From: Narcine bancroftii
Lineage: Eukaryota
Length of the DNA: 64,000 nt
NCBI RefSeq assembly: GCF_036971445.1
Contig: NC_091477.1
Span: 101,680,001-101,744,000, forward strand
Direction: 5' to 3'
Under the pieces are notes generated by a model. It was given only the letters and a program-made list of their open reading frames with translations, searched no databases and was not told the DNA's origin. Position numbers and translations under genes: made by a program. Of this stretch, positions 5,826 through 43,810 are shown in pieces. How positions within the stretch are numbered: the stretch's first letter is position 1; every line of letters begins with the position of its first letter.

Positions 5826-6273
5826 CTCTAGTGCACATTTCTGCTGAGTGAAACCAAGGGCAACTGCTCTAATAATACCCCAGTTTCAGAAACTAAGGTA
5901 GAACAAAGTTTTTAATGTTTAGACTGGATTTATTTTATATTGGGCGACTTCTATGGTTACAGGAAGTAAAACTTGTAAATAAGAAAATCTGAAATATAAT
6001 TCAACAAGTAATGCTGTTATATATGGTTAAATTATATCAATTCCCAAAGAATTTAAAATGTTTATTTCTTGGTTCTATGTGAACTTTCTTGTTACCTACA
6101 ATCCCAGTTAAGGGACCATGAAACTCAGTTTCCACCCACATAATTAAACATTTCAATTTTGGGGATTTTTTTTAAATTTAAGTTAACTACTGAAGAATTT
6201 TGTTATCCATTAATACTTTCACCAAAGTAATTCAACAGGATCTAACAGTGAAATATGTCCTCTATTGTCTTAC

Positions 6274-7141
6274 TTTGCACATGGTCAGTATTGGCTTTCT
6301 CCAAATGAGTAGGTTCCAAGTCCTGAAGTGCAGCACCTTTGTTGACCAGGCAAACTCCACCTGAACAATGTGTTACATCCGAGCATACATCAGTTTTACC
6401 CTTGCTCTTTCTTCGATTTCTCTTTTTATTATTCTGCATAACCATCTCATTAATCATCTGTACATCATGTTCAGTTCTCACTGTACCAACTCTTTGAATA
6501 CAATTGTCCAAAGATTCCTTAAGCTGTGGCAATGCAAATTGAAAGCAATGATTATCAGTACTTGTCGCTGATTTTGCTAATTCTTTGTGACTCTCCTCAA
6601 GTGTCTTTGGATGCAAAGATGAAGACTTTCCTTCTTTGAATATTACTTCATTTCCAAACTCAGGACTTCCACCCTGGCTGCTGGTGGTATCTCTTTGCTT
6701 GGTTTGCTTTTGCTTTGTCAATCTGAGCTGCTGTTTCTTCTGAGAGTCTGGCATGACAATCTCATCAGCATCGCCAGTGTTTTCCACATTATTAAGAGAC
6801 ATGTTTGGAAATAGGGAAGCATAGTCAATATCCACAGCTGATGGAGAGTGACTGTGTTTTGTATTTCCTCCCAGACTTTGTTGATAATTATTAATATCCT
6901 TTTGTTGCTCCACATCTGCGACTGAAGGACTTTCATCAGCCTCGGCAGTAGTTCCACTTCCATCATTTCTGTCAATATGATTAACCAGATGAGAAAAACG
7001 GTTTAGATATGCTCTAAACCTACCACTGCAGTGCTGGTTTACCAGCTTAGAATAAGCATTTTTTGGTGTACCGTAAGTCTTGCCACAATATCTTGCATCG
7101 TAAGAAGAATGCTCTTCCTTTGTTTGTCCTGAATGATCCAT
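6274..7141 (-). CDS. DIS3L2: Probable first coding exon of DIS3-like exonuclease 2 (289 codons + 1 nt, long low-complexity N-terminus)
   Basis: Open 299-codon frame. Acceptor tttttgcag at 7180-7181 (exon starts 7179), in-frame stop just upstream of ATG 7141, donor AAA|gtaaga after 6274 (phase 1). Head-to-head with NPPC, same strand as COPS7B, as for DIS3L2 in other gnathostomes. The KNAYSKLVNQHCSGRFRAYL motif recalls fish DIS3L2 N-termini (from memory). No catalytic exon is in the window. Confidence 0.7.
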
Positions 7142-7269
7142 TTGGTGACGTTAATAGTCATAAAAGACACCAAATAAAGCTGCAAAAACATATATAAATA
7201 TAAAAACTCATGTTAGATATAGCATTAGCATTATCCATAAAATTAAACATTTGGTATTTAAAAGTTTTT

Positions 7270-16994: not shown

Positions 16995-17060
16995 CCTCTG
17001 ATTGTTCCCAGCAAGTTCCAAAAGGAGACGCTTGGTGACGTCATTTCATCTTATAAAATG
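16995..17060 (+). promoter_or_regulatory. NPPC proximal promoter: perfect CRE and TATA box
   Basis: TGACGTCA at 17036-17043, TATAAAA at 17052-17058, ~130 bp upstream of the ATG; degenerate inverted CCAAT (ctgattgt) at ~16998. Confidence 0.85.
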
Positions 17061-17185
17061 ATGGGAAAGCAGTGGAGAAAACAGCAGACCACTCTTGATC
17101 TACAGGCAGACGGAACTCCAAACGTAACCAAACAATTTTAATTTGAAATATCTAGGTGCAGAATCCGCTACGGTGGAAAACAAGA

Positions 17186-17278
17186 ATGAACATCTCTTCT
17201 TCGCTTATAGTTTCTGGACTATTCCTGGTTCTGCTGTCCACAAAGACGGAGGCAAAATCCTTGACTCAGCCACAGCAA
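17186..17278 (+). CDS. NPPC: C-type natriuretic peptide precursor (CNP4/NPPC type), coding exon 1: signal peptide
   Basis: MNISSSLIVSGLFLVLLSTKTEAKSLTQPQQ followed by donor gtaagt (phase 0); hydrophobic core and EAK cleavage context match fish CNP4 leaders (EAKPLTQAQQ). Confidence 0.9.
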
Positions 17279-17780
17279 GTAAGTTTATGAAGTCTGTTCG
17301 GACAAGGCAGAACCATGCATCGATTCGCGTGTCCAATCGACGCTACTAAATCATTTGTGTCATTTGTCGCAACCCTTCTCCACCTTTAAAATTTGAATGC
17401 CTCTCCCACGACTTTTATTCATGTTCTGTGTTAAATAAAGTTATATCTGTAAATATGCCGAATGGGACATCCATCGACAATGAATGTCCTGTACTTGTCC
17501 AGTTGTAAGCAGTTCCTTCTCTGTCCGCTATTGTGTTTCATTTTGCGAATTCTTTTTTTTAAATACAGTGCTTAATTTTACAGATTAACAAATGCATCCC
17601 ATCCAGTTTATTTATTTCAAATGACATCAGGTTGAATGCCTCAGACGATATCCAGAAATGCCCGTGCATTTATGAAATATGCAGCTGTAATAGTGTATGG
17701 GATGGTAAACGATGTTCTAACATGTGTTGCGATTCCATGTACTATGACAAAAGATTCTCTAATTCCAGTTTCTTTTACAG

Positions 17781-18017
17781 GCTGCTATGCATTTATTGGG
17801 TGAAGAATTCACCGGGATTTTTTCCTCAGAGGAGAACGGTAAGATTCCAAATGTGAACGCGAAAGTACGGTCCATTCGAGGCCTCAACATTGAGAGCGGA
17901 TCAAAGAGCTCTTTGAGTTGGCGTATCAAGAACCGCAGAAAAAACTCCAAGAAGAAAAAAGGCTGTTTCCGACTTAAAATGGACAAAATAGGAGCCATGA
18001 GTAAACTTGGTTGCTAG
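17781..18017 (+). CDS. NPPC: C-type natriuretic peptide precursor, coding exon 2 (prosegment and 17-residue ring)
   Basis: Acceptor ttcttttacag at 17780; LLGEEF motif, RSIR furin-type site, GCFRLKMDKIGAMSKLGC-stop with no C-terminal tail (the CNP hallmark); donor gtaagt at 18038, 20 nt after the stop; lies between DIS3L2 and COPS7B. Confidence 0.93.
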   Translation, partial: AAMHLLGEEFTGIFSSEENGKIPNVNAKVRSIRGLNIESGSKSSLSWRIKNRRKNSKKKKGCFRLKMDKIGAMSKLGC

Positions 18018-18421
18018 ATCTGCGACTCCTAGCGACGGTAAGTGTCTTGCGAACACTGCTCGAATTCGCTTGATTGACTTTATTGGTGATTTACGAGCAT
18101 AAACTTTCGCTTATCTCCGCCCATTGCGTAACATGACCACCGAGCTCACCGTGGCAGCCACCCCCCCCCCCCACCAATCCAGACTTTCTCTTATTGCGAT
18201 GACTTCATCTATCGTTAGAACAGAGAGACGTAGTCTTTTAAAAATAAATGCGCCTGCTTTCGACAGCTAAGCAAGTTTTTTTTTCCTTCACCCAATTCGG
18301 GTTGTAGTAAAATTGACCTGTAGCAGCGGCTGCGTGAAGTCACCCACCACGAAAATTAATTCCCATTGAAGTATCTTCTCATTTACTGCCAAACTAACAA
18401 TCACTTATTATCACTTCGTAG

Positions 18422-18810
18422 GACACCGGGCTGCCGATGGGTTCCAAAAACTATTCGTGTGTCTTACTGTCTCGCTCAAAATAAGAAAACGACGCAGTTT
18501 CTCCCGGTACGAAGAATCACATTTACCAGCGGCTTTTAGAAGGGTGATGGGGCATGTTGTTGCTTTCAGAAATTGTTTATTTCATTTCTGCATAAATGTA
18601 TTTATGTTTAAACTATCTATATCATTATAAAAGAAAGATATTTATAAAAGTTTATTTATGTGACAAACTGAACAACAGATGGTTAAAGTAGAATTTGTAA
18701 CATTTGTGCTATAGCGAATCCGTGTTAAATTGCATTTCACGAAAGTCCGAAAAGTCTCTTTATTTATTACAGTCCGTGCAATACAAAATTTAAAAAAAAT
18801 AATGGTGGCA
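18422..18810 (+). other. NPPC: Candidate NPPC 3'-UTR exon with AU-rich elements
   Basis: Acceptor cacttcgtag at 18421; several (T)TATTTAT motifs at 18600-18770; AATACA at ~18780 followed by a GT/T-rich tract. Confidence 0.55.
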
Positions 18811-28587: not shown

Positions 28588-30274
28588 AACTGCATGAGTT
28601 TTTCAAGCTTTGTTGGGACCAAGGAAAACTGCCTAAGGATCTTCGTGATGCCACCATCATCACCCTGTACAAAAACAAAGGCGAGAAATCAGACTGCTCA
28701 AACAACAGGGGAATCACGTTGCTCTCCATTGCAGGCAAAATCTTTGCTAGGATTCTACTAAATAGAATAATACCTAGTGTCGCCGAGAATATTCTCCCAG
28801 AATCACAGTGCGGCTTTTGCGCAAACAGAGGAACTACTGACATGGTCTTTGCCCTCAGACAGCTCCAAGAAAAGTGCAGAGAACAAAACAAAGGACTCTA
28901 CATCACCTTTGTTGACCTCACCAAAGCCTTCGACACCGTGAGCAGGAAAGGGCTTTGGCAAATACTAGAGCGCATCGGATGTCCCCCAAAGTTCCTCAAC
29001 ATGATTATCCAACTGCACGAAAACCAACAAGGTCGGGTCAGATACAGCAATGAGCTCTCTGAACCCTTCTCCATTAACAATGGCGTGAAGCAAGGCTGTG
29101 TTCTCGCACCAACCCTCTTTTCAATCTTCTTCAGCATGATGCTGAACCAAGCCATGAAAGACCCCAACAATGAAGACGCTGTTTACATCCAGTACCGCAC
29201 GGATGGCAGTCTCTTCAATCTGAGGCGCCTGCAAGCTCACACCAAGACACAAGAGCAACTTGTCCGTGAACTACTCTTTGCAGACGATGCCGCTTTAGTT
29301 GCCCATTCAGAGCCAGCTCTTCAGCGCTTGACGTCCTGCTTTGCGGAAACTGCCAAAATGTTTGGCCTGGAAGTCAGCCTGAAGAAAACTGAGGTCCTCC
29401 ATCAGCCAGCTCCCCACCATGACTACCAGCCCCCCCACATCTCCATCGGGCACACAAAACTCAAAACGGTCAACCAGTTTACCTATCTCAGCTGCAACAT
29501 TTCATCAGATGCAAGGATCGACAATGAGATAGACAACAGACTCGCCAAGGCAAATAGCGCCTTTGGAAGACTACACAAAAGAGTCTGGAAAAACAACCAA
29601 CTGAAAAACCTCACAAAGATAAGCGTATACAGAGCCGTTGTCATACCCACACTCCTGTTCGGCTCCGAATCATGGGTCCTCTACCGGCATCACCTACGGC
29701 TCCTAGAACGCTTCCACCAGCGTTGTCTCCGCTCCATCCTCAACATCCATTGGAGCGCTTTCATCCCTAACGTCGAAGTACTCGAGATGGCAGAGGTCGA
29801 CAGCATCGAGTCCACGCTGCTGAAGATCCAGCTGCGCTGGATGGGTCACGTCTCCAGAATGGAGGACCATCGCCTTCCCAAGATCATGTTATATGGCGAG
29901 CTCTCCACTGGCCACCGTGACAGAGGTGCACCAAAGAAAAGGTACAAGGACTGCCTAAAGAAATCTCTTGGTGCCTGCCACATTGACCACCGCCAGTGGG
30001 CTGATAACGCCTCAAACCGTGCATCTTGGCGCCTCACAGTTTGGCGGGCAGCAACCTCCTTTGAAGAAGATTGCAGAGCCCACCTCACTGACAAAAGGCA
30101 AAGGAGGAAAAACCCAACACCCAACCCCAACCAACCAATTTTCCCCTGCAACCGCTGCAACCGTGTCTGCCTGTCCCGCATCGGACTTGTCAGCCACAAA
30201 TGAGCCTGCAGCTGACGTGGACTTTTTACCCCCTCCATAAATCTTCGTCCGCGAAGCCAAGCCAAAGAAAAAAA
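28588..30274 (+). mobile_element. Young 5'-truncated RTE-clade LINE
   Basis: Uninterrupted RT frame from ~28590; short 3' UTR ending gccaagccaaagaaaaaaa; CpGs largely retained. Confidence 0.93.
28719..30203 (+). CDS. RTE LINE ORF remnant: reverse transcriptase and C-terminal zinc finger (no endonuclease, no true start codon)
   Basis: PESQCGF, FVDLTKAFDTV, GVKQGCVLAPTLF, LLFADD, QLRWMGHVSRM, CNRC...H motifs. Confidence 0.9.
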   Translation: MLSIAGKIFARILLNRIIPSVAENILPESQCGFCANRGTTDMVFALRQLQEKCREQNKGLYITFVDLTKAFDTVSRKGLWQILERIGCPPKFLNMIIQLHENQQGRVRYSNELSEPFSINNGVKQGCVLAPTLFSIFFSMMLNQAMKDPNNEDAVYIQYRTDGSLFNLRRLQAHTKTQEQLVRELLFADDAALVAHSEPALQRLTSCFAETAKMFGLEVSLKKTEVLHQPAPHHDYQPPHISIGHTKLKTVNQFTYLSCNISSDARIDNEIDNRLAKANSAFGRLHKRVWKNNQLKNLTKISVYRAVVIPTLLFGSESWVLYRHHLRLLERFHQRCLRSILNIHWSAFIPNVEVLEMAEVDSIESTLLKIQLRWMGHVSRMEDHRLPKIMLYGELSTGHRDRGAPKKRYKDCLKKSLGACHIDHRQWADNASNRASWRLTVWRAATSFEEDCRAHLTDKRQRRKNPTPNPNQPIFPCNRCNRVCLSRIGLVSHK

Positions 30275-35880: not shown

Positions 35881-36613
35881 CTGTAAAGGAACAGAAAAAT
35901 TGATGGCAAAGTGACCTTATCCACAAAGCCATCAGACATAAGCTTTTTAAAAAAAGGTTACGATAACTAACAAATACATTTTCAATTATTCGTGTTAATC
36001 TGGAGAACAGAATGCAATTATAGTCCCATAAATTGCATTAAAAAACAAATTTAAGGCTGTAAAAGCTACACAACACAAATATACATTAGGTAAACTGAAT
36101 CCTCTTGTAATACATCTTAGATTGAGGATAGGGTCTAAAAGTTCATATCAAGCATACGTGGTTTAATTCTACTCTTGGTCCAACACTTTTGAAATTAACA
36201 CATAATAAATGTTGAATATATACTTCATGATGCCATTTTTAAATAGATGAATTTTAACTGGAACAAAAACCTGATATTGCCCTTAGTTGATTTACTTTTT
36301 CCATAAAAAAAACAAATAAGTTGAAATAATCAGGAAGGGGAGTACATTTATCCAATTTTATTTTTGGGAAGGAAAAATTAAAATTGCAGACTCTTGATCA
36401 GATACTTAATTTTGTTTTGAACCATAATAATCCATGGTTTAAGCTTAGTGCGCTCATTTCTAATATCAGCAGGCATGCGAAACAAACTTCATGATTGCAA
36501 GAATGTATCACAAAGACACAGACTTATCCTTAGAGGTTTTCCAATTGTTCTAGAGTATTTTTTTTAAAAAAAATCACAATTAAAGAATATTATTAATTTA
36601 AAAAAACACTTGC

Positions 36614-36816
36614 CATTCCTGGAGAGTTTTAACAATGTTGCTGATATCTTGCTTTTGCAGATCTCTGCCGATGCAAAAGTCAATCTCAAGCAGCTGATTT
36701 CGCTGATCGAGTTTGCCTTGTATTATATCGGTATAAATTGCTTCAATAATTAAATCCTCCAATTCTCTGAGATTTTTTATATCGAGGTCTTTCAAAAGCA
36801 CAGAATATGGAATGCA
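36614..36816 (-). CDS. COPS7B: COPS7B coding exon 4 (203 nt, PCI domain), GC donor
   Basis: [52 protein letters not shown]...LQE(W); acceptor ctttgcag; the frame joins the next exon only through TG|gcaagt. Confidence 0.93.
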
Positions 36817-38887
36817 CTGCAAAGTTTTAAAAAGTAGCTATTAGCAATTGCTTGAAAATGAGCATTTTTAAAATACAGATCTTGTTATCCCAATGGAATG
36901 GACAAAAATAATGCTTTTCAATCAAATCCAAAATTCAATAAATGAGGATATTTGCAAAACATCAAATCAAAGCTGGAAACAATATATGGCTTTTCTATTG
37001 CAATCTATATAAAAATTGTAATCATTAGTGCTCTCAAAAACCAAAATGCAAAACAAAAACCCACACAAATGGCAGTCTCAGGTACAAAATAAGCATATGA
37101 GCTGCTCTTATATTAAAATATTGTTATGTGAGCAGTTCCATTGAAGAGGTCAAACTAAAATGAAATTAGAGAAAACAATCGTTGAACAGCGAGGTTAAGT
37201 AAAATTCCTCCACTTTAACAAAACATGTGAACAAGTTGAAATTTTTTAAAAAAATGGTTATTTTTAAATCAGCAGTGACCTTTAGAAATATTAACTACAA
37301 AAGAAGTAAAATGTGAATTCAGAATTATTGGAAGAAAAATTTATTGTTCCAAAACTATTACCATTATTCTCATTCAAACATTAAATTTAATTTCATATTC
37401 TTAAATAATCCAAAAGATAATATATCTGGCACATTGTGTGTGATTTTCATTTATTTGATTCTTTGTCTGAGCAGGCCCCGTCATTTCTTGAGATTAGAAG
37501 AATGAAAGGCAATCTCATTAAAATGTTACAATGAGCTGTTTACCCCGAGTAGAGCATTTACTCAGAGAAAGTTGTCTCAACCTAAAAAGTCAAATTGAGT
37601 TGAGAAGCCATTTCTTCATTAGGAAGGTTGTAAATGCAAGGAGATCCCTAGCCTCAAGGGATGAGCATGATCATTTAAAAAATATATATTCAAGACACAT
37701 CTTTGTTTTATTGCCAAGGAATTAAAGGAACTGGGTTCAGGATTAAAAAGTAGAGTTGTTTTTGAAGTTCAACTGTAATCTCATTGAACGGTGCAACAGG
37801 TTTAATTGGAATTATCGTTTATTTCAACTTTTGTTCATACATAAATAACTTCAAACTCTATTTATGACTCAATAAAAGTCCAAGGATATTACAAAATTTT
37901 CCATTCCCAAGCCACAGTTTTAAAAGATTATTAGTTCATAATGCATTTCAGACAATCAGCTTCAGTATTATTAAATCAACATGTTTTAAACGTTAACCTT
38001 TCCACTAAAGCACTTTCTATTCCTTTCCAATAATGTGCCAGAGTCCCAATTTTAGAAAAGTAATAACACAATAATTTTCACTTTTCCCGCCAAAGATTTT
38101 GTAGGCATGAATTAGTTGATGGTGCAGAAGCTACCTTAAAATGTTGTACCATTACCATTATGAATTTTGTTTAATTCAACCAATTCAATTTCTAAAAAAG
38201 ACAGGAACCAAGGACATTTTTCAATCCCTTCAATTTGAATGTAAAGCTAAACCCAAGAGACAAAATGATGATCTTGCATCCACATCATTACTAGGTATCA
38301 CTGGAACATTCTTTATTTTGAAAAACTGAAACAGTAATTAACAAACAAAAGCAACAATGCAACTGTTCCAATGCAACATCTCAGTGAAGGATAACAATAA
38401 TTTTTAAAAAGCTCACAGAAATTGTCACCTTTCTTATTTACCAGCTGAAAGACTATTTTGAAAAGATCTCCCAAAAATACAATGGTTGTGTGTAGATAAA
38501 AATGACGAGAAAATGCATGCTTCTCTAAAGCATGAAAGAATACCTGTCGCCTGTTAAGTACAACATATTTGACAATGAAAACAGCCAAAGATCCACCAAG
38601 CAGTAAGCAATGAGATAATTTCAAATATTTCCATGTTCATCAAAATTAGCTATGGGTTTCTGCGCATCTTATATTTACTTGTTGCAACAACAACAGTTGA
38701 ATATAATTGGTGGCAATGTTTAATATGAAAAAGGATTATGTAAACAACATTCACAAATTCAATTGAGCTCATACAAAATAGTTGGGCTACAAAACTACAA
38801 TTGAGATTATTTTTAAAAAATCACTCTATGACAATGTATCCTGGACACCTAGCATGTATGTGCAAACAAAATCTAAAGTACCGGTAC

Positions 38888-40989: not shown

Positions 40990-43810
40990 TTTTTTTAAAC
41001 TTTATTTAAGATTTTATAACATGAATAACATATAGGATTACATTTAAAAAAATTAAGAATAATCAAATTACAATACAGTATCAGTAATCTAAATAAACTA
41101 TACCCTCCCCAATAATTATTACACATTAATAACCCAACTCAAATTAGTCCAACCCCCCCTTCCCCCCAAAATAAAGAGTGAATAAAGTTAATAATATGTG
41201 AGAAAAAAGAACCCACTTACAAAAAAAGAACAAAAGCATAACCGATTAAAATACTAACAAAAAGAAAAGTAATTAATACTAAGATATCAGACTTAAAAAA
41301 CATATTTAAATCAAACTTAAATGCATATATTTAACAAATGGAGTTAAGATGAAACATATATTTAACTCAAACTTAATATAAAAAATTAGTAAAGTTAGTA
41401 ACATCTATCAAAAATTCTTAAATAATCAATTCTTTAAAAAAATTGTAGCATGAAAAAAATGAAAAAAAAACTTTCTCTATAGAGATAAACCTTCACCAAA
41501 TATCAAATAACTTCACATCTATCATCATATTAGTCACATAAACCACCATCTTAAAACAAAATTCAAACCTCATTAAGCAATGTACAATTCAATTTTAGTA
41601 CTCTTCCACCATTTTTCTCTTTTACTCTTGAATAGTTATCCAATGAAAGCTCCAATACCATATTTAAATATCCCCAATCATTACGTTAAAATTCAGATAT
41701 CCTAATAATAAAAACACATCTACAACGAAATCTATATCTTCAACAAATGGAGCATAAACCACAAATAAAATTCAAGCCTCATTAAGAATTGTACAATTCA
41801 ATTTATAACTTTCACCATTATTCCCTTCGTTCTATAACTAAAATAGCAAAATAATATACACCAGAATTACCACTCCTTTCACCTTAAAATTAAAGAAAAA
41901 ATATAAAAAAAACTTATCCATCCCATTCACATTTAAATTTCAAATATTCTTTATCTACTGAATAAACTTTACAAAAAAAACATCAATTTTTAGTTTTTTA
42001 AACAATCAAATACTTTCTTATGCTTTTTTTTATATTTAAACAAAAAAAAACCCTTCACTCTTTAATCTAATAATACAAAAAAAAAGGAAAAAAAGAAACA
42101 GGTAGGCTAAAAATACCCCCTCCCGTCTAAACCGCGCAATGCGGTAACTCCCAAAAAAAATGGGTGTGAGATAACGTCACACGTAGCAGATGACTTTCAG
42201 GAAATAGTGCCTATCCAGTTCTCTCCCCCAACTCTCACTTCATCTTAAACTAACATCATCATTATTTAATATCCCTTTTTTTTAAGCTCCAACTGCCGAG
42301 TCACCATTACAACCATTCCTTCTTGGAGCACGACTCTTTTCTTCCATCTCTTGTCTCCTTAGAGATCGCGGCGGACTATGTCTCTGTTGAAACTGAGTAA
42401 TTGGCAGCTCTTGAGCAAATGCTATAGCTTCCTTTGGAGAATCAAAGAACTTTGGTTGGCAACCATCTTGGAAAACCTTCAAAACAGCTGGATATCTAAA
42501 GGTTGCCTTGTAACCTATCTTCCACAACAACTCTTTAGCAGGATTGAATTCCCGTCGTTGGAACATAACTTCTTGACTCAAATCCGCATAGAAGAAAACT
42601 CGATTATTTTGAATCATCAAGGGTGATTTTCTCTGTTGTGCATTTCTAATAGCCACTCGTAAAATAATTTCTCTATCGTAATAATTCAAGCAACGAACCA
42701 AAACAGGTCTTGGACTTTGACCTGAAATAGGTCTTCTACGCAAGGCTCTGTGAGCACGTTCCAGTATTATACCTTCCGGGAAATGTTCTTGACCCAGCAC
42801 CTGCGGAAAACATTCAGTAAAAAATTTTCTTGGGTCTGGTCCCTCCATACCTTCCGGCAAACCAATAATCTTTATATTGTTTAGTCTGGATTGGTTTTCC
42901 AAATAATCAATCTTTTTAACCAAATTTTTATTTTGAGTTTATAAGTCTTCGACCATTTTGGTCACATCAAAAACTTGATCCCGTATTTCGTCTATATCTT
43001 CTTCACACGAATTAAATTTATCTCTCACTTCAAGCTTAAAAGCTCCAAACTCAGCCATCTGTTGAGAATGTATTTTCACCAGAGTATTACACCTAGTACC
43101 AAGTTCAGTCATAATCTTGGATAATCCCTGCATTGTATAAGATCATTTAGATTCAAGATTCACAAAAATCTTTTCAATTGGAAGAGATTTTGGCTCAACA
43201 AATTCCTGCTTCTTCTGCATAACCAAAGAATCTTCTGTTCCTTCCTTCATTCTGTTTGCCTTCCTTGTAGTATGACTGCGTGTGGAAACCCCAGCCACAG
43301 CCTCTCCAGCAATGACTGGAGGACGCTGGCCGGGGTTTTCCCCAGTCCATAATGTATTAAGTTCTCCCAGTACATCAAGTTGTATAGGTTTTTCTATCTC
43401 AAGAGATGCAGTTTGCAGCGCCATCTCTACAGTTGACAAATGCCTTTGAGTAACTCTTTGTTCTAAAGGCTGTTTGGCGCCCTCTTTAGGAGGCTCTACC
43501 GATGTAATATAGAGCTCTACATCCGAACACTACCTCTCTCCTGCGATCCATTTCATGCTGAGTCCCGGTGTCTTTCCTGTAGGTAGGCTCCAAAACTTGA
43601 ACTTTTGGAAAATGTAGTTTTTTGATGATCTGTTGTCATTTTTTTTGCTCTTTTCCACCAATTGTACCATCATAAGTTAAATTAACAGCACTGAAATTAT
43701 CTAAACTTTTAAAGAATTTTAACGGGCATTTCTAGACAAAACAATAAGATAGAGTCAGGAGAGGACTGGAAGGCACGTCTGATCCTTACGCCATCTTGCC
43801 ACGCCCCCCT
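40990..43810 (-). mobile_element. L1-clade element encoding ORF1 only (HAL1-like), full length, 15-bp TSD
   Basis: 5' end GGGGGCGTGGCAAGATGGCG, L1 ORF1 motifs, AATAAA + poly(A) at ~40990-41010; TSD aatgtcaatacagtt at 40975-40989 and 43811-43825. Confidence 0.88.
42282..43670 (-). pseudogene. L1 ORF1p (coiled coil, RRM, CTD) with in-frame stops
   Basis: LENQSRLNNIKIIGLPEG, LERAHR, PRPVLVR, FFYADLS, FRYPAVLKV; three ORF-track pieces share one frame, split by stops at 43143 and 42939. Confidence 0.85.

Follow-up and report, generated by a model that had tools for sequence, protein, structure and literature searches.

Among natriuretic hormones, C-type natriuretic peptide (CNP) shows the strongest conservation, and its analogues are short-stature drugs. 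A 64,000-nucleotide stretch of contig NC_091477.1 of the electric ray Narcine bancroftii (the window, from the first letter of which coordinates are counted unless another locus is named) holds a gene of this type whose ring was predicted to be highly divergent and cationic. This locus raises the question of whether such a gene is genuine and in use, to which CNP it corresponds, and what a peptide with such a ring might do.

Gene structure, transcription and sequence accuracy

The window gene is the NPPC/CNP4 gene of the ray, with three exons and a 109-residue precursor. Its parts are as follows.

17036-17043 (+): CRE-like element TGACGTCA, from a motif scan; its role is only putative
17052-17058 (+): TATA box TATAAAA, from a motif scan
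17142..17278 (+): exon 1, to the limit of the transcript contigs; coding part 17186-17278
17279..17780 (+): intron 1, phase 0, GT-AG; joint 17278>17781 in contigs of runs X5, X6 and X7
17781..18037 (+): exon 2, with pro-segment, predicted furin site, basic extension, ring, stop (18015-18017) and 20 nt of 3' UTR
18038..18421 (+): intron 2, GT-AG, within the 3' UTR; second joint in X5, X6 and X7
18422..18780 (+): non-coding exon 3, in which ATTTA occurs five times (motif scan and contigs)

The ATG at 17186, the donor at 17279 and a phase-0 join to the acceptor at 17780 give the 109-residue precursor with a hydrophobic N-terminus. The coding part of exon 1 comprises 31 codons for a predicted signal peptide (hydropathy peak, 2.9) and the first part of the pro-segment, and was identical to CNP4 of the shark Heptranchias at 20 of 30 positions. 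The CRE-like 8-mer also precedes the CNP3a paralogue (L001).

Four of 12 listed runs, one DNA run (X1) and three RNA-type runs (three samples from one study), were compared at the locus. The DNA contig covered the whole locus with zero substitutions and one additional C in an intronic C-run. Intron 1 and the 3' UTR intron were exactly spliced out in contigs from all three RNA-type runs, the joint 17278>17781 was missing from the DNA run, and the coding exons had no differing letters in the contigs of any of the four runs. These spliced contigs without differing letters indicate that the gene is transcribed and spliced, and they rule out an assembly error as the source of the ring. None of the listed runs is recorded as RNA, and the basis for transcription is the spliced joints; the contigs inform on splicing, not on level, tissue or start site. 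Assembly error was thus ruled out by one DNA run, possibly the assembly's own source, and three RNA-type runs from one other study. Nonsense-mediated decay through the 3' UTR intron is unlikely, because the junction lies only 20 nt beyond the stop. Four runs of three other organisms had a word overlap of 6-11% with the locus, a word match only that was not counted as evidence. The original prediction described the promoter, signal peptide, splice sites, both cysteines and stop as intact, and all were confirmed by motif scan, hydropathy and GT-AG borders; its concerns about assembly error and expression were answered by the agreement of the contigs with the assembly in the coding exons and by the spliced contigs in 3/3 RNA-type runs.

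Three other open frames were observed in the window. A single-copy frame of 302 codons at 6245-7150 (-), with no Pfam family above cut-off, may be one exon of a gene not yet annotated between NPPC and DIS3L2. A 537-codon LINE reverse-transcriptase frame (Pfam RVT_1) lies at 28590-30200 (+), and we take the frame at 42285-42938 (-) to resemble LINE ORF1.

Orthology and natriuretic paralogues

Synteny and a tree bear out the predicted CNP4/NPPC orthology. The minus strand carries DIS3L2 ~195 kb upstream of the window gene and a COPS7 exon ~19 kb downstream of it.

36601..36837 (-): exon-containing frame of a COPS7-type gene, the synteny marker; Pfam PCI 37.8 bits, weak CSN7a helix I, by which COPS7A and COPS7B are not separable

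We take the order and orientation DIS3L2-NPPC-COPS7B to be those of the human NPPC neighbourhood; human NPPC presumably has the same gene neighbours as the ray gene and, like it, a non-coding third exon. PDE6D-family matches were also observed 4.3 Mb from the window gene.

A 41-row tree placed the window gene with elasmobranch CNP4 (90/80, an open fork) and kept it apart from the CNP3 clade (99/96). Because the ray branch is long, the exact elasmobranch placement is unsure; CNP1 and CNP2 references did not form part of the tree. The window locus was the best match of a shark CNP4 query of the genome, and neither this query nor a Pfam search found a second conserved CNP4 copy there.

Four natriuretic genes in the genome exceeded the Pfam cut-off, each with the second cysteine as its last residue. 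Two of them, L001 and L002, are a tandem CNP3a/CNP3b pair ~9 kb apart (G000:C5:155.29-155.30 Mb) with canonical rings, and the spliced L002 was identical to an annotated Narcine bancroftii protein. The fourth gene (L003:1339-1587; G000:C5:201.228 Mb) is apparently intact, with a candidate exon 1 at L042:5784-5873. Its ring has Met6, Lys14 and Phe15, the first two in common with the window gene; its branch is very long, and no close relative was among the protein matches listed. We assume that it resembles teleost CNP2. Arg8 is kept in both CNP3 genes and in L003. An intronless GPCR frame, presumably resembling a cysteinyl-leukotriene receptor, was observed ~7 kb from L003 (L043:7021-8028, -).

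No ray, skate or chimaera CNP4 protein was among the matches listed in the protein searches, which for a shark-CNP4 profile were the best 120 of 162; CNP3 proteins of these groups, nine named batoid genera included, were present in the same protein collection. On a shark-only profile, ray CNP4 would reach 91.5 bits, more than the level of the best 120 of 162, and the ray protein itself was not retrieved from the collection (exon 2 query, 42-137 residues). Searches with exon 2 alone gave no batoid orthologue candidates; a representative library yielded two matches, from a caecilian and a shark, and no batoid; and a metagenome scan gave a single 23-residue match outside the ring, which was treated as chance. 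The missing batoid CNP4 may reflect loss, divergence, missed annotation or the 42 matches beyond the best 120 of 162. Shark CNP4 proteins are already in RefSeq. We found no paper on elasmobranch or ray CNP4 that describes the ray gene in the literature searched, the scope of which did not extend to most subscription comparative-endocrinology journals.

The ring and its rarity

Translation confirmed the ring as predicted: 17940-18017 (+) encodes KNSKKKKG, the ring and a TAG.

17964..18014 (+): 17-residue ring CFRLKMDKIGAMSKLGC (translation, ring comparison)
17970-17972 (+): ring Arg3
17979-17981 (+): ring Met6
17985-17987 (+): ring Lys8
18003-18005 (+): ring Lys14

It is the sole such ring in the six-frame translation of the window, and the gene scored 31.7 bits against Pfam ANP (PF00212; cut-off, 27). 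The gene has the C-type mark, absence of a C-terminal tail, as the TAG directly follows the second cysteine codon. Ring length and tail absence are common to mammalian NPPC (CNP-53, CNP-22), and mammalian CNP (PDB 1JDP chain H) was the best solved-structure match of the ray ring. The ray ring differs from mammalian CNP by Arg3, Met6, Lys8, Ala11 and Lys14, and the ray genome differs by its three further CNP genes.

The ring was compared with 233 rings out of 235 fetched proteins, a survey biased to canonical rings because the word-filtered searches were seeded with CNP rings. Position 3 was Gly in 233/233 rings (Arg in the ray) and position 8 was Arg in 232/233 (Lys in the ray). Position 6 was Leu in 232/233 and Met in none, the ray having Met. 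Position 14, Lys in the ray, was Gly in 213/233 and otherwise Asp (11), Ser (4), Asn (4) or Arg (1); several CNPs of sharks and skates have Asp, Ser or Asn there, a stingray CNP3b has Arg, and L003 also has Lys. The ray ring holds four K/R; 220 of the fetched rings hold two and 12 hold three. Nine of the ten positions that are invariant across the 233 rings are retained in the ray. Gly3 to Arg and Arg8 to Lys are therefore exceptional, whereas Gly14 to Lys falls at a site that tolerates change in cartilaginous fish. The prediction of three near-invariant changes accordingly held for positions 3 and 8 and not for position 14, and, of the sites whose variants it wished to see sought in relatives, position 14 varies and positions 3 and 8 are fixed or nearly so. 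Its remark that Leu to Met occurs in other natriuretic peptides was right for L003, although Met6 is rarer among CNPs than implied.

Arg3, Lys8 and Lys14 break the mammalian ring consensus Gly3/Arg8/Gly14 as reported in PMC9502559, with the remaining consensus positions kept. This breach leaves the gene in the natriuretic family, because venom members break the consensus too. One of these, the K-ring of the krait natriuretic peptide (KNP), is a natural ring with non-glycine residues at 3 and 14 and altered pharmacology (PMC9502559, PMC7285919). It has Asp rather than Arg or Lys at these positions, keeps Arg8, carries a long tail and acts on prey NPR-A, whereas ray CNP4 is an endogenous orthologue that shows no hint of use in venom.

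The ray ring differs from that of shark CNP4 at 5 of 17 positions (3, 4, 6, 8 and 14). At position 4 the ray has Leu, the bony-vertebrate type. As a separate observation, 11 of the 12 shark CNP4 rings (P0027, P0031, P0052, P0056, P0099 and others) have a BNP-type Arg4, the bony-vertebrate rows being mostly Leu; from these residues, sharks might use CNP4 on NPR-A.

The basic extension and predicted processing

Shark CNP4 (Heptranchias perlo XP_067850742.1; Scyliorhinus canicula XP_038672508.1) has a signal peptide, LLGEE pro-motif, R-x-x-R site, basic extension and tail-less ring in common with the ray precursor, and the Heptranchias protein was 55% identical to it over 107 columns. By this alignment the CNP-53-type R-x-x-R motif is present in the ray, and cleavage there is predicted.

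17868..17879 (+): R-S-I-R, predicted furin site; aligns with the R-x-x-R upstream of CNP-53 in orthologues
17880..18014 (+): predicted 45-residue CNP-53 equivalent; 14 K/R, 2 D/E, net +12

The shark long form has 53 residues, and the ray form is shorter by an in-frame loss of ~8 residues, by which the basic cluster is compressed. The dibasic region of the 22-residue form is shortened: the G-x-S-K-G lead-in of CNP-22 is replaced by a four-lysine run preceding Gly-Cys. Ray forms of 18, 20 or 25 residues are conceivable from the basic runs.

The last 31 residues of ray CNP4 contain 13 K/R and one acidic residue (Asp), as predicted, and the matching 31 residues contain 9-11 K/R in 12 shark CNP4 proteins and 8 in the listed bony-vertebrate CNP4 rows. 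The cationic character is thus present and mostly inherited, and the tail appears largely ancestral. Net charge of the long form was +12 in the ray and +8 to +11 in orthologues (catshark, +11), counted over 44-51 residues because the script cut several rows at a later R-x-x-R. The ray peptide has four overlapping BX7B motifs, and each of the four orthologues counted has one. Changes that gain K/R were 7 of 18 in the mature part and 1 of 21 elsewhere (p=0.015), an enrichment that is only suggestive given a hand count, an ambiguous alignment stretch and A-rich sequence there (37% vs 27%).

Evolutionary rate

The terminal branch was 0.59 for ray CNP4, as against 0.026 for ray CNP3a and 0.24 for CNP3b; shark CNP4 tips did not exceed 0.14, and the ray branch was at least four times longer than any of them. 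A generally fast lineage was ruled out, since CNP3a is identical to that of Trygonorrhina at 125 of 131 positions. In relative-rate counts against Heptranchias, exon 1 showed no acceleration (4:4 and 4:3) and the basic extension strong acceleration (10:2 and 11:1). The pro-segment gave 8:0 with a Polyodon outgroup (p=0.008) and 5:1 with Erpetoichthys (not significant), and the ring gave 4:1 against sharks (p=0.38, not significant). Identity to Heptranchias was 12/17 in the ring and 27/60 in the remainder of exon 2 (p=0.10, not significant). The acceleration is gene-specific and covers all of exon 2.

In a neutral simulation (20,000 runs per setting, without indels, which would lower the percentages), the frame stayed open and nine or more of the 10 core positions survived in 0.1% of runs at 45% identity, 0.6% at 55% and 2.7% at 65%. 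The ring core is thus kept beyond neutral expectation, indicating that purifying selection on it continues, or did until recently. Neutral decay rarely leaves 9 of 10 core positions, and this result and the splicing support the original view that the gene is not simply decaying. However, acceleration of the pro-segment, which is discarded, makes partial relaxation under paralogue redundancy a serious rival.

Receptors

Three receptor genes were compared by their first coding exons, all of which are open. That of NPR-C (L044) is well conserved, with 216 bits to 1JDN; that of an NPR-A-like gene (L045) scored 241 bits to rat NPR-A; and that of a third gene (L046:1411-2022, -), 200 kb from NPR-C, scored 181 bits and lacks the cysteine at rat position 164. 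By elimination, we take L046 to be NPR-B. The residue corresponding to Asp62 of rat NPR-A and Glu55 of human NPR-B is Gln in the putative ray NPR-B and Glu in the putative ray NPR-A. A docking study reports that NPR-A Asp62 and NPR-B Glu55 contact ring Arg8 (PMC9699598). The Gln is a lead only, the ray being the one elasmobranch whose NPR-B was compared, and the CNP3 genes and L003 still keep Arg8. As a side observation, 15 or more ANF-receptor-domain exons are densely clustered at G000:C21:119.9-120.7 Mb and likely belong to V2R/OlfC-type chemoreceptors.

Discussion

The ray gene is real, expressed, orthologous to NPPC/CNP4 and divergent at two positions that matter; its cationic character and third substitution are less special. 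We tentatively favor, at a probability of about 0.45, that this single expressed NPPC/CNP4 gene encodes a likely secreted, lower-potency, matrix-retained local agonist of NPR-B. By homology, the precursor would be secreted and the disulphide ring closed. A furin-type cut at R-S-I-R would release the 45-residue basic cyclic peptide, possibly trimmed at basic runs. NPR-B would be the target, as the tail is absent and Leu4-Lys5 are kept. Potency would be reduced, changes at ring positions 3, 8 and 14 lowering guanylyl-cyclase receptor potency in other natriuretic peptides: NPR-A potency reportedly falls, but is not lost, with G3D or G14D (PMC9502559, PMC7285919), and His at ring position 8 is reported to accompany lower potency (PMC10095932). 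These published data concern NPR-A with Asp or His substitutions, and the ray case concerns NPR-B with Arg or Lys. The basic clusters may hold the peptide on glycosaminoglycans as they do CNP analogues; cartilage retention of one analogue has been credited to basic clusters and BX7B motifs, both of which occur in CNP-53 (PMC6386482). The basic cluster that would bind matrix is, as a feature of CNP-53, ancestral. Lowered potency at the changed ring sites and basic-cluster retention in other peptides favor a weaker, locally retained guanylyl-cyclase agonist, so weak NPR-B agonism with matrix binding appears the most plausible of the roles originally suggested. The two CNP3 genes with canonical rings would supply high-potency signalling, freeing CNP4 to drift or retune. 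Against this reading, acceleration of the pro-segment fits loosened constraint as well as retuning, and a net charge of +12 is only slightly above the +11 of catshark.

The main rival is relaxed selection, which we consider somewhat unlikely: three other CNP genes would make CNP4 partly dispensable, and it would be drifting, transcribed and of little specific function. The faster change of the pro-segment and basic extension with the in-frame loss, the length of the terminal branch beside those of the CNP3 genes, and the lack of any CNP4 from rays or skates in the best 120 of 162 matches to the shark profile, in a collection with batoid CNP3 well represented, all fit such drift. Zebrafish nppc4 (CNP-4) is reported to be likewise the most divergent of four CNPs amid redundant paralogues, its ring being 76% identical to human, although it has gained a C-terminal extension (PMC10454581). 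Yet the frame has stayed open and the ring core and both cysteines are retained, beyond neutral expectation; exon 1 shows no acceleration; conservative replacements account for two of the ring changes; and the batoid absence may be an effect of missed annotation or the remaining 42 matches, the ray protein itself also being unretrieved. At the other extreme, selection may have redirected ray NPPC to a matrix-tethered ligand of new receptor selectivity, matched by a receptor change such as the Gln of the putative NPR-B, which we judge unlikely.

A different receptor is less probable still. A shift to NPR-A would suit a genome that has an NPR-A gene and no tailed ANP/BNP-type ligand: the four natriuretic genes above the Pfam cut-off are all tail-less, the NPR-A-like gene exists, Met6 is reported among the ANP residues important for NPR-A (PMC10095932), and the Arg4 of 11/12 shark CNP4 is as in BNP (PMC9502559). 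The ray peptide, however, has the CNP-type Leu4 and no tail, and its positions 3, 8 and 14 are altered in ways reported to reduce NPR-A potency, so that elasmobranch CNP4 having moved to serve NPR-A is improbable. Equally improbable is an NPR-C-biased ligand or osteocrin-like decoy that extends the life of the canonical CNPs. The ray ring retains Phe2, Asp7, Ile9 and Met12, and the NPR-C exon is well conserved. Osteocrin and cANF, however, keep the Phe-Gly and Asp-Arg pairs, both altered in the ray, and decoy function needs no disulphide ring, yet the ray keeps its ring. Both cysteines are present, and the Pfam scan of the window protein gave no Musclin match; a genome Pfam search for osteocrin gave no candidate, but its control was silent as well. 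Although CNP Phe7 and Met17 (ring positions 2 and 12) are reported to occupy NPR-C pockets (PMC13674804), the NPR-C bias originally proposed is poorly supported, because ring Arg8, which binding to NPR-C and to NPR-A is reported to require (PMC10095932), is altered in the ray. A host-defence peptide evolved from a hormone gene, also proposed originally, is very unlikely. Net charge, +12 over 45 residues, is the one ray property that speaks for it, and human BNP, not CNP, is cited as antimicrobial at 36 uM (PMC6026938, citing earlier work). The charge is mostly ancestral, however, the helical hydrophobic moment is 0.34 as against 0.73 in shark orthologues, the conserved portion is the receptor-binding core, and growth of P. 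aeruginosa is reported to be unaffected by CNP up to 1 uM (PMC6026938).

The gene indicates that rays do possess NPPC, of which the searched protein collection returned no batoid member among the matches listed. If the peptide is merely weak and redundant, its interest would be restricted to comparative endocrinology. If redirection by selection were true, endogenous vertebrate CNP signalling would proceed without the Phe-Gly and Asp-Arg pairs, providing a natural test of NPR-B requirements. An expressed orthologue without Gly3 and Arg8 and with the rest of the core retained is a structure-activity probe for NPR-B and NPR-C.
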